Positions 9,482 to 19,430 of a stretch of 64,000 nucleotides of DNA are shown here, one piece after another. A model generated the notes under the pieces. That model was not told the origin of the DNA. It saw only the letters and a list, made by a program, of their open reading frames with translations, and did not search any database. The translations under genes and the position numbers were made by a program. Location of the stretch: positions 101,184 through 165,183 of the forward strand of contig JBAQUS010000011.1 of the NCBI GenBank assembly GCA_049297675.1, written 5' to 3'. Positions within the stretch are counted from its first letter, which is position 1. Each line of letters opens with the position of its first letter. The DNA is from Minisyncoccia bacterium. Lineage in GTDB: Bacteria; Patescibacteriota; Minisyncoccia; Phycocordibacterales; DATDWN01.

Positions 9482-9534
9482 CTTGCATTTTTAGTGGGGG
9501 GGTAAAATAATGGTATTAAAATTAGCTTAAAATT
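9482..9534 (+). promoter_or_regulatory. conserved promoter/leader module, copy a (TTGCAt, 7 G's, TAAAAT ... ttaaaattATG)
   Basis: cttgcatttttagtgggggggtaaaataatggtattaaaattagcttaaaatt followed by ATG at 9535. Confidence 0.45.
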
Positions 9535-10203
9535 ATGAATGAAGGAAAACTTGAAAATAGTGATGACTTATCTATTGCCCCTCAAGAAGGATTAGATGGG
9601 CAAGTTGAAGATTATGATGCAGAAAAAAATTGGCAAGAATATATAAGAGATGGACGTCGAGAGCCGATGTCTATGGATCGTATATACTATATAATCCAAC
9701 GAGAAGATGGTCGGGCAGCCAGAATGGCGTTAAGTCACGCAGTTAATAGTGAGAGAGAATTTAAAAATGGAAAAGCGTGGTCTCCTCGTTCAGGAATAGA
9801 TTTTCCAATAGATGTGTCAGGACTTAATGAAGAGGAAAAGGATAAAATAGATCTTAAAGTGGGTAGTCTTGTCAAAGCATGGATTTTAGAACACGAACAA
9901 CAACAAGAATTAATGTTAGCAAGAGAAGAAGCTTTACGTGGTAATACCACAAAACTTATGAGTCTTCTCGTGGCATCTATGAGAAACGTAATAAACTCAG
10001 AGAGTCCGGAAACAGCCTTCAAATATATTTGTGGAATATGGTCCAGGAGTGATGGGGAAGATTATGAAGCAAATGCAACAGATTCTCCTCGTGAACTGAT
10101 GGATCATCCACTTCGTTATTTACCGAGCGATGTACAAAAAAAATTTGAGGATGAGTATAAGAGAGAATTTAGGAGCATGTTGGATGAGGAAAATGAAAGG
10201 TAA
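9535..10203 (+). CDS. hypothetical acidic protein
   Basis: ORF track; no family recognised. Confidence 0.35.
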   Translation: MNEGKLENSDDLSIAPQEGLDGQVEDYDAEKNWQEYIRDGRREPMSMDRIYYIIQREDGRAARMALSHAVNSEREFKNGKAWSPRSGIDFPIDVSGLNEEEKDKIDLKVGSLVKAWILEHEQQQELMLAREEALRGNTTKLMSLLVASMRNVINSESPETAFKYICGIWSRSDGEDYEANATDSPRELMDHPLRYLPSDVQKKFEDEYKREFRSMLDEENER

Positions 10204-10290
10204 AACTAATGGATAAGCAAGGTAAGCTATTGCTTTAATCAATCCTGAAAATGTTTAAGCTAGGGGAGTCCTCGCTTAAACTCGATTTAC

Positions 10291-10566
10291 TTAAAAAAGT
10301 TCGGAATGGTTGCCAATGTCGATTAATATCAAAACGAGCTCTCTTTTTCGGATTTGATAAACTAGAAGCAGGTCACCTTTAATGTGACACTCACGGAGGT
10401 TGTGCATACTTCCATGTAAAGAATGGTCTTTGTATTTTAGTGGGAGTGTTTTTCCTGAAGCTAGTATTTCGACAGCTGTTTCGATTTCGACCCTTTTGAT
10501 CTTCCCAGAGTGCATGACTTTCTTAAGGGATTTCTCAAATCTCTTAGTGAATATTTTTTTATACAT
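10291..10566 (-). CDS. yafQ: YafQ/RelE-family mRNA interferase toxin
   Basis: TLPLKYKDHSLHGSMHNLRECHIKGDLLLVYQIRKRELVLILIDIGNHSELF matches the YafQ pattern (LPxxYKDHxLxG ... REcHI ... DxLLIY ... GTHSxLF). Confidence 0.7.
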   Translation of the reverse strand: MYKKIFTKRFEKSLKKVMHSGKIKRVEIETAVEILASGKTLPLKYKDHSLHGSMHNLRECHIKGDLLLVYQIRKRELVLILIDIGNHSELF

Positions 10567-10583
10567 TTATTTTCCACTAAAAT

Positions 10584-10859
10584 TTAGACCAAAATATCAT
10601 CAAACATTTCTCGGGTAGAAGAATATCTTTTGCCGTGCTTTAAAGCCTCCACAGCCTCCCTTTCATATTTCTCAATTATTTTAGGATTGTATTTGTGAGT
10701 AAAACCAAATGGGCAAACATAAGTAAGATTATTAGGGTCGCTTTCTCTGGCCAAAAGAAACTTTATTCCGGAAGACAAATCAAGCCCCATATTCTTAAAC
10801 ATTTTTATAGCTTTTGTTTTTGTTGCCTTGTCTATTCTAATTTGTAGTGTTGTGTCCAT
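10584..10859 (-). CDS. dinJ: DinJ/RelB-family antitoxin, partner of the YafQ toxin
   Basis: MDTTLQIRIDKATKTKAIKMFKNMGLDLSSGIKFLLARES matches DinJ; the ORF-track start at 10943 is an upstream extension. Confidence 0.65.
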   Translation of the reverse strand: MDTTLQIRIDKATKTKAIKMFKNMGLDLSSGIKFLLARESDPNNLTYVCPFGFTHKYNPKIIEKYEREAVEALKHGKRYSSTREMFDDILV

Positions 10860-10936
10860 TTGGACAGTATAAAAAAATGTAATGATAATGTCAATACATA
10901 CTTTGTTGTAAGTGAAGGTGTACTTACCTACAATGA

Positions 10937-10998
10937 CTTGCAATTTTTACGGGGGGTAAAATTGAGGTATTAAAGTTAATACTTAAAAGTATAAAATT
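10937..10998 (+). promoter_or_regulatory. conserved promoter/leader module, copy b (TTGCAA, 6 G's, TAAAAT)
   Basis: cttgcaatttttacggggggtaaaattgaggtattaaagttaatacttaaaagtataaaatt followed by ATG. Confidence 0.45.
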
Positions 10999-11409
10999 AT
11001 GGAAACATACCACGATAGTTCTGGTCAAGAAATAAGTAGGGAATCTTTTATTGAATCACAGGAGAAAGAACATGATATTGAAGAAAGACTTTTGAGAGAG
11101 TCAGGGTGGTCACCGCTAGATGTTGTTCGTACTTTCTATCTATATGATAAATATGATGAAGCTAATCGTGACCAAGCGATAGGTGTAAAAAGGACTGTCG
11201 TTGTAATTGACACAACCATTCCGTCATACGGGTTTGATCATTGGGAAATTAATGGTGATGTTTTGCCACCAGATAATTCTGCAAAAAGTATATCAGTATA
11301 TGAATGGGTGAAGAACGGTGATGAGTATAAATGGGTTGAGATCGAAAGATATAAATGTAGTTATGATGGTGGTAAGCAGGGTGAATGGAAAAGTCTAGAT
11401 CTGACATAA
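10999..11409 (+). CDS. hypothetical protein
   Basis: ORF track. Confidence 0.35.
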   Translation: METYHDSSGQEISRESFIESQEKEHDIEERLLRESGWSPLDVVRTFYLYDKYDEANRDQAIGVKRTVVVIDTTIPSYGFDHWEINGDVLPPDNSAKSISVYEWVKNGDEYKWVEIERYKCSYDGGKQGEWKSLDLT

Positions 11410-17362: not shown

Positions 17363-17365
17363 TAT

Positions 17366-17653
17366 TTGATGAATTTATCAAAAGATATAATAAATGAATG
17401 GGACCTTGGTACTTTGTCCAAGGAAAGAAAGACTGACGTAGTCAGTCGGATTAGCCGTGTATTGTTCCAGGCACTTATGGTTAGATCACTTGATATACTA
17501 TCTGATTCAGAGCAGTCAGAACTTGATGACTTGATGAGTCAGGATTCAACAACGTCTGAGGATGTTCTTATTTTTTTAAAATCTAAAATTCCAACATTTA
17601 GTGTTCTGGTGAAGGAAGAGAGAGAAAGTTTAAAAAGAAGTATGCAGATTTAG
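17366..17653 (+). CDS. hypothetical protein
   Basis: ORF track. Confidence 0.3.
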   Translation: MMNLSKDIINEWDLGTLSKERKTDVVSRISRVLFQALMVRSLDILSDSEQSELDDLMSQDSTTSEDVLIFLKSKIPTFSVLVKEERESLKRSMQI

Positions 17654-17954
17654 TTCGGGGGTTGACTATTGAATATTTTTTGTCTAGTATTATTGTGTCG
17701 CTTTTGCGACAGTTTTTTCTCTGCTAATTTTCGTAAGTTCCCAAAATTTAGATTTCTCGAACACTAAGTTTTTGGAGTTTCCAAAATGGCAAATTATTAG
17801 AAGATTAATTAAAACAAACACGACGCAAATTACGAATAAAAACGAACCCGTCCGAATGGATTCATCCGGGCGGATGACACGAATCAAATTCTAAATAATT
17901 GAATCTTATTCGTAAATTCGTACTCATTCGTGGATTGGTGTCGAGATAAATATT

Positions 17955-19157
17955 ATGGCAGATCAAGCAGTATTTGATAGAAGCAAGCCCCACATGAACG
18001 TGGGTACTATCGGTCACGTTGACCATGGTAAGACAACATTAACAGCAGCAATCCTTAACGTCCTTGGAAGAGCAGGAGGGGGATACAAGGCAAGAGTTGA
18101 AGCAATCGATCAGATTGACAAAGCCCCAGAAGAGAAGGCGAGAGGAATCACCATTTCTCTACACCACTCTGAATACGAAACACCTACAAGACACTATGCT
18201 CACGTAGATGCACCTGGACACGCGGACTTTATTAAAAACATGATCACTGGTGCCGCTCAAATGGACGGTGCCATACTAGTGGTTGCAGCAACAGACGGAG
18301 TGATGCCTCAAACAAGAGAGCATGTACTTTTGGCAAAACAAGTTGGTGTACCACAAATGATTGTATTTCTAAACAAGTGCGACATGGTTCCAGATGTAGA
18401 GCTTATTGACTTAGTTGAGGAGGAAGTTCGAGAGCTTCTTACTAAGCAAGGTTTTGATGGAAAGAGTGCAGCAGTTATTAGAGGTTCAGGACTTAAAGCT
18501 CTTGAAAGTAAAGACAATGAAGACGTCTGGGCAAAGAAAGTATTGGAGCTTGCAAACGCGTTAGATACCTTACCTATTCCACAGAGAGACTTAGAAAAGC
18601 CATTTCTTATGCCGGTTGAAGACATTTTCTCAATCGAAGGAAGAGGAACAGTGGTTACTGGAAGGATAGAGAGAGGTGTTGTCAAGGTTGGTGAAGAAAT
18701 AGAGTGTATTGGTTTGAAAGACACGGCAAAATACACTGTTACTGGTATTGAAATGTTTAACAAATCTCTAAACCAAGGAGAAGCAGGGGACAACGCTGGT
18801 ATACTTCTCCGAGGAGCAAAGAAAGAAGACATCCACAGAGGACAAGTTTTGGCCAAACCAAAGACCGTGACTCCTCATACAGAATTTACAGCAGAAGTTT
18901 ATATTCTAAAGAAAGAGGAAGGTGGAAGACATACTCCATTCTTCTCAGGTTACAAGCCTCAGTTCTATGTTAGAACCACAGACGTTACTGGAGATGTGAC
19001 GCTAAACGAAGGAGTAGAGATGGTTATGCCAGGAGATACTGTCACTTTCAAGGTAAAGCTTGTTGCTCCTGTTGCACTGGAAGAGATGACGAGGTTTGCT
19101 ATACGCGAGGGAGGCAAAACCGTAGGCGCGGGTGTTGTGACTAAGATAATTGTGTAG
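17955..19157 (+). CDS. tuf: elongation factor Tu
   Basis: [26 protein letters not shown] and full-length EF-Tu similarity. Confidence 0.95.
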
Positions 19158-19330
19158 CAATTATCTTAGGTGACAGAACTTCCAAATTTGGTGAACTTCT
19201 CGTTCCGAATTTGAAAATGCTCGTCACCTTAGCACTAACTAAGGCTTCTCGCATTTTCAAATTCTCACGTCGAATTTCACTCAAATTTGAAAGTTCGTGG
19301 TGACTCTAGAATATAGTTTTCAAAATAAAA

Positions 19331-19368
19331 TCAAAAAACCATCCTGAGTTTATCGTGGGGTGGTTTTT
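19331..19368. terminator. A-run / hairpin / T-run terminator downstream of tuf
   Basis: aaaaaaccatcctgagtttatcgtggggtggtttttt. Confidence 0.45.
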
Positions 19369-19375
19369 TGGTACC

Positions 19376-19430
19376 CTTGCAATTTTTACGGGGGGGGTAA
19401 AATTAAGTGAATAATAATTAACTTAAAATT
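19376..19430 (+). promoter_or_regulatory. conserved promoter/leader module, copy c (TTGCAA, 8 G's, TAAAAT)
   Basis: cttgcaatttttacggggggggtaaaattaagtgaataataattaacttaaaatt followed by ATG. Confidence 0.45.

Follow-up and report, generated by a model that had tools for sequence, protein, structure and literature searches.

The stretch of DNA analysed here, referred to as the window, covers 64,000 nucleotides of contig JBAQUS010000011.1 (assembly GCA_049297675.1) and belongs to a metagenome-assembled genome (MAG) of the Minisyncoccia, within the Candidate Phyla Radiation (CPR) or Patescibacteria; its NCBI label, 'Minisyncoccia bacterium', corresponds to Minisyncoccota/Patescibacteria. The window carries rpsL, rpsG, fusA, tuf, rpsJ, rplC, rplD, rplW and rplB. 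The order rpsL-rpsG-fusA-tuf-rpsJ is otherwise universal, and about 17 accessory open reading frames (ORFs) break up this normally contiguous ribosomal-protein array. Three of the inserted genes, p1, p2 and p3, lie with toxin-antitoxin modules between rpsG, fusA, tuf and rpsJ, and each is preceded by one copy (c1, c2 or c3) of a promoter-like leader module in which a run of 7, 6 or 8 G separates a -35-like from a -10-like hexamer. These leaders had been pointed out in an initial annotation, and their sequences are exactly as claimed there at 9483, 10938 and 19377. The three units are composed as follows.

9482-9534, plus strand: module copy c1, cTTGCAT-TTTTAGT-G7-TAAAAT-26 nt-ATG (9535); -35-like TTGCAT at 9483-9488, G7 at 9496-9502, -10-like TAAAAT at 9503-9508
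9535-10203, plus strand: p1 gene, 222-aa acidic (pI 4.7) orphan
10937-10998, plus strand: module copy c2, cTTGCAA-TTTTTAC-G6-TAAAAT-36 nt-ATG (10999); TTGCAA at 10938-10943, G6 at 10951-10956, TAAAAT at 10957-10962
10999-11409, plus strand: p2 gene
19376-19430, plus strand: module copy c3, cTTGCAA-TTTTTAC-G8-TAAAAT-27 nt-ATG (19431); TTGCAA at 19377-19382, G8 at 19390-19397, TAAAAT at 19398-19403
19431-19844, plus strand: p3 gene, 137-aa acidic protein

The distance between the two hexamers equals 7 + n, where n is the number of G residues, and amounts to 14 nt in c1, 13 nt in c2 and 15 nt in c3. The G run is the sole part that varies in length, which confirms the earlier claim that it alone sets the 13-15-nt spacer. 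Downstream of TAAAAT, the leader of c1 is AT-rich, measures 26 nt and terminates in cttaaaatt without a Shine-Dalgarno (SD) sequence, that of c3 measures 27 nt with the same terminal nonamer, and that of c2 is about 10 nt longer (36 nt) and terminates in tataaaatt; all three conform to (c/a)t(t)aaaattATG. The initial annotation was right that none of the leaders has an SD sequence and that all end in aaaattATG, but this does not make them special: an SD-like tetramer occurs at just 1 of 50 gene starts in the window, so its absence is a property of the organism as a whole and not of these leaders.

Searches of the surrounding sequence indicate how restricted the module is. With up to three mismatches allowed, a degenerate pattern matched c1, c2 and c3 only, against 0.07 matches expected from shuffled sequences, and all three copies sit inside one 10-kb stretch. 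An nhmmer profile of the core found no weaker copy in the 64-kb window and no copy in the roughly 18.7 kb of contig sequence that flank it (some 83 kb in total), and the module was not seen 5' of the remaining ~47 genes examined in the window. Runs of at least six G or C number 13 in the window. Only four of them fall between genes, those of c1, c2 and c3 among them. The module is not a generic promoter, because no other copy was found in the ~83 kb covered by the profile search, and the earlier reservation that the motif might stand before most genes is thereby answered.

The placement of the copies can be read against two terminator-like structures.

19330-19372, plus strand: terminator-like hairpin after tuf, -21.7 kcal/mol, with flanking A and T runs
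19868-19931, plus strand: two hairpins 3' of p3, with a T run after the second hairpin

At c3 and at the homologous locus of another genome (L002, see below), the module begins 2-5 nt past a strong terminator hairpin: the tuf hairpin stops about 5 nt 5' of c3, and in L002 a terminator of -21 kcal/mol that trails efp is followed by the module after 2-3 nt. A transcription unit would be expected to begin at such a position. The hairpins after p3 would make this gene a monocistronic unit, insulated from hicBA and rpsJ downstream. Copy c2 is divergent from a YafQ/DinJ-like toxin-antitoxin pair (10291-10859, minus strand) and shares an intergenic region with the promoter of that pair. The earlier proposal of a shared promoter-like leader module on unrelated genes is supported by the preceding terminators, together with the three copies found where 0.07 were expected.

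The products p1, p2 and p3 are acidic (pI 4.6-4.9) and hydrophilic. They have no signal peptide or transmembrane segment (maximum KD19 0.4-0.8), no significant Pfam or PADLOC match and no restriction-modification or glycosyltransferase signature, and nothing marks them as surface, host-interaction or restriction-modification products. No structural match to known proteins was obtained; the AlphaFold2 (AF2) model of p3 (pLDDT 57) was too poor for a structure search. For p1 there is no match in Pfam, PADLOC or PHROG and no homologue besides itself, while p2 has a marginal PHROG match (E 0.005) whose function is unknown in that database. Pairwise BLASTP revealed no similarity among the three proteins, and at the profile level the p2 and p3 families are unrelated (hhalign probability 0.1%), in agreement with the earlier statement that the three proteins are unrelated. 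The sole homologue of p3 is P0002 (158 aa), which aligns over the full length with 27% identity by BLASTP (E 2e-8; 31% in alignment) and is encoded in a 'Candidatus Saccharibacteria' MAG behind the same module with G8. A full HMMER search found a small homologue of p2, P0020, with 34% identity; strong matches of p2 to giant proteins were rejected as homology and correspond to a short Ig-like repeat motif (RTVxVVDTT). Taken together, p1, p2 and p3 would be cytoplasmic orphans, and not surface or restriction-modification proteins.

Related modules occur in other genomes and metagenomes. Two scans with the pattern TTGCAWTTTTWRYGGGGG-N0-8-TAAAAT, one of the GTDB species representatives and one of the Joint Genome Institute (JGI) metagenomes, gave seven loci together, three of them convincing (L002, L004 and L005). 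The 'Candidatus Saccharibacteria' locus L002 and L004, from a groundwater metagenome, are 99.9% identical and carry cTTGCAATTTTTGT-G8-TAAAAT-31 nt-ATG ahead of the P0002 gene, with a core near-identical to the window type although P0002 and p3 share just 27% identity. In L005, cTTGCATTTTTTGT-G8-TAAAAT precedes an unrelated small protein between a YafQ/DinJ pair and pnp. A further type is found on four groundwater contigs (L017-L020), where TTGACA-AAACCAATTA-G9 (or G8A)-TAAAAT-28 nt-ATG lies upstream of the P0020 gene; its leader shares with c3 an identical 15-nt block, ATAATTAACTTAAAA, while the segments 5' of the G run in the window type (spacer 13-15 nt) and the L017 type (19 nt) are not homologous, homology being confined to G run, TAAAAT and leader. 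The module formed by G run, TAAAAT and leader was thus met in four source populations and before four protein families. Its constant core consists of G(6-9)-TAAAAT and an AT-rich leader, with 26-45 nt from TAAAAT to ATG, and the leader end TAAAATT-ATG is kept in five of six distinct instances. Across seven distinct instances the spacers measure 13, 14, 15, 15, 15, 19 and 19 nt, none falling at 16-18 nt, and in three separate genomes G8 is the modal tract. That the G tract is conserved follows from its presence, in the same module, before distant homologues of p3 and p2 as well as an unrelated gene elsewhere. The tract itself appears to be under selection, because conservation of the core greatly exceeds that of the attached proteins (27-37% identity) and the G run has not decayed.

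The P0020 gene also occurs without the module. Together with its terminator and an adjacent tRNA gene, it is 99% identical between L017 (508-1087) and L021 (124-703), with unrelated flanks; the 5' breakpoint in L021 lies 13 nt before the ATG, and a canonical-looking promoter, TTGGTT-18-TATACT, replaces the G-tract promoter. The remaining pattern matches were set aside: L006 is a chance match inside a UDP-GlcNAc epimerase gene, L007 was discounted for its non-G gap, L003 is uninformative at a contig end, and L001 lies on a contig that is genuinely from Bacteroidales (atp operon), where the strand of the motif carries no gene downstream. At 2252-2279 of L001 (Bacteroidales MAG CAMVLO010000074.1) stands TTGCAATTTTTAC-G9-TAAAAT, with flanks identical to c3, and on the opposite strand the C9 run lies 5 nt upstream of an outer-membrane-protein-like ORF; this site is either a coincidence or an unrelated poly-C contingency site. 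A scan of viral contigs for the module gave no matches, and exact-protein look-ups of S12 and the edge genes, made for closer relatives, returned the same clone only.

The hexamers TAAAAT (TAnnnT) and TTGCAA or TTGCAT (TTGnnn) fit a canonical sigma-70 promoter; the spacers of c1-c3 fall short of the 16-18 nt of this promoter type, and a consensus promoter scan did not call TTGCAA-TAAAAT at any of the three sites. Nor is there an extended -10 TG, as position -14 is G but position -15 is G and not T in all copies. Ordinary promoters of the window have spacers of 16-18 nt, for example TTGCAC-16-TATAAT upstream of several ribosomal-protein genes, TTGACA-17-TATACT for the YafQ/DinJ pair and TTGACT-17-TAAACT, placed 6 nt 5' of the ATG of a Phd-like antitoxin gene; the geometry of 13-15 or 19 nt is therefore specific to the G-tract class. 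The region 9000-20500 gave no Rfam match at E<=1, and the RNA of the module folds no better than shuffled sequences (z -0.35 to -1.4), which together favour a signal at the DNA level. A TAnnnT element ending exactly 6 nt before the start codon was found at 8 of 50 genes, against about 2.5 for each other offset; these starts include 1041, 11477, 16097, 20188 and 37165, and their excess suggests that leaderless mRNAs are frequent in this CPR bacterium.

Several other ways of reading the block were tried and rejected. A palindromic operator (AATTTTTAC-Gn-GTAAAATT) fails on TTTTTGT in L002 and L005, which breaks the symmetry. For a sigma-54 promoter (GG-N10-GC around TTGCA), judged by eye, the distance from TGG to TTGCA is 2 nt too short, and the GG is absent in c2. 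A different -10, 17 nt away from TTGCAA, lacks conservation across the copies, and TGcAATTTT as an extended -10 with a start inside the G run, implying reiterative transcription, does not fit the L017/L018 version.

Known promoters offer several points of comparison. In Neisseria meningitidis porA (poly-G) and opc/fetA (poly-C), as here, a G or C tract lies between -35 and -10, so that each base shifts the spacer by 1 nt. At porA a 15-nt spacing gives no expression; in Neisseria the common lengths span the functional range of 16-17 nt, lengths vary between strains, and the genes encode outer-membrane proteins. The present sites differ in their spacers of 13-15 (or 19) nt, in showing no length polymorphism in the assemblies and in preceding cytoplasmic orphans. 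In Mycoplasma hyorhinis, likewise a small-genome bacterium, the vlp genes (poly-A) have a conserved promoter and 5' region with a tract length particular to each copy. At vlp, which encodes surface antigens, the conserved part reaches into a lipoprotein signal peptide common to the family; here it ends at the ATG, and the products have no signal peptide. The fim genes of Bordetella encode paralogous fimbrial subunits, depend on BvgA and have tracts of about 13-15 C. Variation of the promoter tracts of porA and fim is cited in PMC2562373, where small C insertions or deletions are described as switching Bordetella pertussis fim2, fim3 and fimX between high and low expression. The likeness to fim2/fim3/fimX (poly-C) is that several genes share a conserved promoter with a gene-specific homopolymer length; the differences are that the downstream genes here are unrelated, that the tracts have 6-8 G and that no activator is known. 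The architecture is that of the porA/opc, fim2/fim3 and vlp promoters, which are the closest known systems. The sites are not filed with phase-variable promoters, because their spacing lies outside the functional range and no length polymorphism was seen in the assemblies.

Promoters of the extended -10 (TGn) type and those of group-3 sigma factors are another point of reference. The sigma-B (GGGTAT) and sigma-F (GGnnAnAHTR) promoters of Bacillus subtilis have G residues upstream of the -10 that aid recognition, and their -35 may be weak or oddly spaced. The sequence GGGTAAAAT resembles such -10 regions; here, however, there is no T at -15, the upstream element is spaced by 10-12 instead of 12-15 nt, no such sigma factor was identified in the available sequence, and 6-9 G far exceed what these motifs need.

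The reading favoured here, as plausible rather than probable, is that accessory orphan genes of CPR bacteria carry a specialised and conserved module of promoter and leader, in which a selected G tract directly adjoins the -10. Each copy would be an autonomous promoter and 5' leader for one accessory gene of the str/S10 ribosomal-protein region, and the module would represent a promoter class conserved in other uncultured, probably CPR, bacteria. Its core would comprise 6-9 G abutting a TAAAAT -10, followed by an AT-rich leader of 26-45 nt without SD sequence, usually ending in TAAAATT-ATG. We infer a role as -10 for TAAAAT, a transcription start about 7 nt farther on and a function for the G tract, at about -13 to -20, where selection would retain it as part of the promoter. 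The upstream TTGCAA (TTGACA in the other lineage) would lie 13-15 nt (or 19 nt) away, which is not a canonical distance; the core formed by G run and -10 would then be read by a dedicated factor or sigma, or else these promoters would be intrinsically weak with the housekeeping sigma. Tract length (7, 6 and 8) would then be a slowly evolving, gene-specific setting of promoter geometry and not a demonstrated fast ON/OFF switch.

A number of observations weigh against this account. The available sequence yielded no candidate sigma or regulator, none of the neighbouring genes recurs in every context, and the assignment of the -10 and of the start site was itself made from sequence. The presence of 6, 7 and 8 G in one genome is unexpected if the G run is a rigid recognition element, and CTTGCA(A/T)TTTTT, invariant in five copies from three genomes, is unexplained if the -35 is irrelevant. 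GG before TA(A/T)AAT is not enriched generally in the window (12 of 171), so there is no broader rule of a G-rich extended -10, and a general 'GG before -10' rule in this genome was accordingly rejected. As the L021 copy has a different promoter, the module is not obligatory for the P0020 gene. Finally, the ATG of c1 and that of c3 are preceded, at exactly 6 nt, by TAGCTT and TAACTT, respectively; with this leaderless-type signature a second start site is possible at these two copies.

The initial annotation had taken the homopolymer as a sign of slipped-strand phase variation, according to which the three sites would be contingency loci where reversible mispairing alters the -35/-10 spacing. 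The lengths seen would be OFF or weak states, gain of G (window type) or loss of G (L017 type) would bring the spacer into the ON range of 16-18 nt, and p1, p2 and p3 would switch independently and stochastically. This explanation is possible but doubtful. The tracts do lie exactly between the -35-like and -10-like hexamers (assigned by their letters alone), n differs among the three paralogous copies, and the tract persists across deep divergence. The 15-nt spacers of c3, L002 and L005 are one G short of 16, the spacer of the ribosomal-protein promoters of this genome, and the 19-nt spacers of L017/L018 are one G above 18; the modal geometries thus stand one slip outside 16-18 nt, which fits a state that is OFF in most cells. 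Tracts of G8-G9 are within the range that slips in Campylobacter, Neisseria and Bordetella. Between two groundwater populations the single difference in 1028 nt falls inside the 9-nt tract (about 0.9% by chance), which suggests a mutational hot spot; this one tract change that was observed is, however, a G/A substitution (G9 in L017, G8A in L019) that leaves the length as it was. In the independent assemblies read, namely two MAG assemblies (including JBAQTD010000011.1, GCA_049296815.1) and Logan contigs of SRR28011701 and SRR28011841, G7, G6 and G8 are identical throughout, with 100% sequence identity, and one Logan contig recurs in four samples; length is thus constant at each locus at the consensus level only, where minority alleles may be hidden, and the initial annotation itself had listed fixed lengths in reads as contrary to phase variation. 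An ON length occurs in none of the seven distinct instances, c2 is three steps away from it with a G6 that is short for efficient slippage (the usual threshold is about 7 nt), and the recurrence of G8 in three unrelated genomes looks like constraint and not like fluctuation. The products lack signal peptides, transmembrane segments and the signatures of restriction-modification enzymes or glycosyltransferases, and a search of the literature turned up no phase variation reported from CPR. With spacers of 13-15 nt, no ON length, constant tract lengths and cytoplasmic orphan products, phase variation is unsupported so far, and it is rather unlikely that these are the first contingency loci described in CPR, with a conserved poly-G switch that keeps small acidic orphans OFF in most cells.

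The other idea of the initial annotation, mobile gene cassettes, would be compatible with both the promoter-module and the phase-variation readings: the ~55-65-nt block would be the 5' end of single-gene cassettes, or a promoter-bearing dispersed repeat, that spreads accessory genes among CPR bacteria, and the G tract would be an inherited feature of the element. Insertions into conserved operons, the association of the module with two gene families and the exchange seen in L021 lend partial support to this proposal. The genes p1-p3 and the adjacent toxin-antitoxin pairs interrupt the rpsL-rpsG-fusA-tuf-rpsJ order, the stretch at 8-12 kb of the window, which holds c1 and c2, has a GC content of 0.33 against 0.38-0.40 in its neighbours, and this genome contains several other families of repeated intergenic promoter-like elements. 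Units of module plus gene stand in unrelated contexts, after efp (L002), between YafQ/DinJ and pnp (L005) and with DUF5654 and a tRNA gene (L017), and the P0020 gene recurs at 99% identity between different flanks in L021. No recombination site, conserved 3' end, terminal repeat, target duplication or adjoining recombinase was found around the three units, however, similarity ends at the ATG, and the viral contigs gave no match. Integron-type cassettes in particular find no counterpart, since the 3' flanks of p1-p3 share no element, attC-like imperfect palindromes included, there is no neighbouring integrase gene, and the units have their own promoter, which typical cassettes do not. As the attached proteins are just 27-37% identical across genomes, any transfer is ancient, or else the module is conserved vertically. 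A cassette or dispersed-repeat origin is an improbable explanation of the block. Less probable again is an action mainly at the RNA level, on stability or translation through the 5' untranslated region, or a true promoter formed by the TAnnnT 6 nt before the ATG. The conserved leader end, the start-proximal TAGCTT and TAACTT with the enrichment of their offset, and small AT-rich hairpins of differing sequence just 3' of TAAAAT in c2, c3 and L002 are in its favour; the unremarkable folding energies and the absence of Rfam families argue against it, and c2, L002 and L018 have no good TAnnnT at this offset. Moreover, with anything from 26 to 45 nt between TAAAAT and ATG, the G run does not keep a constant -35 position relative to a start-proximal -10. 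As for chance resemblance, a poly-G assembly artefact or a generic promoter, intergenic DNA is AT-rich with abundant TAAAAT-like words, and some database matches (L006, L007) are clearly due to chance; with three copies where 0.07 are expected, the same sequence from assemblies and studies independent of each other, equivalent placement ahead of homologous genes in other genomes and absence upstream of the ~47 other genes, this explanation is effectively refuted.

The G-tract module lies in surroundings rich in accessory genes and repeats. Besides p1-p3, the inserted set includes further acidic hypothetical proteins (8245, 15049, 16097 and 17366), a Cas2-like/PaaX_M protein and four toxin-antitoxin-like pairs (YafQ/DinJ, Phd/RelE-type, a second RelE-type and HicAB). 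A perfect 36-bp palindrome, AAAGTATCATATACGCCATGGCGTATATGATACTTT, at 8916-8951 precedes the Cas2-like/PaaX_M gene (9028-9417), and a related imperfect palindrome (9400-9430) lies at its 3' end, the gene being bracketed by similar inverted repeats. Another perfect palindrome, ACTATAAGTTTATCTTAAGATAAACTTATAGT (11444-11476), overlaps TTGACT-17-TAAACT, the promoter of the Phd-like antitoxin gene; the layout of this gene is of the leaderless type, and the palindrome is probably the autoregulatory operator of the toxin-antitoxin pair. A diversity-generating retroelement is present inside the S10 ribosomal-protein region (24982-27769). Its variable repeat (25654-25786), at the 3' end of an ORF (24982-25833), differs from the template repeat (26200-26332) at 18 positions, of which 17 are template adenines, and its reverse transcriptase (RVT_1; 26777-27769) has a G7 run (26726-26732) just upstream. 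Farther along the window, a 150-nt segment occurs twice (46926-47075 and 47259-47408; 98% identity, 333 nt apart), and a tandem array of paralogous genes extends over 58263-64000, with members at 58263, 59599 and 60976 and a fourth from about 63760; the product of the member at 60976 has 921 aa and SpaA_2/VWA domains.

This genome habitually places shared 5' regions before unrelated genes, given that at least three further families of repeated intergenic promoter/leader-like elements are present, and the G-tract family is one such class. The elements of two of these families are located as follows.

7428-7571, 22926-23059, 28291-28426, 30043-30186, 31169-31304, 31509-31635, 21183-21223 and 27914-27954: 'cgaat/attcg'-rich elements
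6240-6288, 28860-28898, 33300-33350, 37120-37164 and 42655-42694: 9-nt-periodic arrays

The 'cgaat/attcg'-rich intergenic elements, of about 130 nt, stand upstream of ribosomal-protein genes as a second, larger shared promoter/leader class, and contain the canonical TTGCAC-16-TATAAT promoter between mutually complementary arms. The 9-nt-periodic arrays (ACTTTATAA/ACTTTACAA) are directly upstream of five genes, at two of which (28899 and 37165) the end of a TATAAC or TATAAT box stands precisely 6 nt ahead of the ATG. A third, small family, GTGAAAGTAGAAAGTATAAAG, is found ahead of 21881, 22646 and 59599.

To our knowledge, almost nothing is known of transcription signals and gene regulation in the CPR/Patescibacteria, which cannot be grown alone. 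A rare and sharply defined promoter class that marks lineage-specific orphan genes would provide a handle on a co-regulated set of accessory genes. Should the tract prove a fixed recognition element, a sigma factor or regulator with a so far undescribed specificity for a G run plus -10 would be indicated. The three sites are at the same time a concrete candidate for phase variation in a phylum for which the literature search found none; should they switch, orphan genes beside toxin-antitoxin modules in ribosomal-protein operons would be one G slip from ON, and through a poly-G switch ultra-small episymbionts would vary stochastically in their accessory functions. The normally inviolate str/S10 operons appear in this bacterium as a landing zone for accessory genes, toxin-antitoxin modules and a diversity-generating retroelement.

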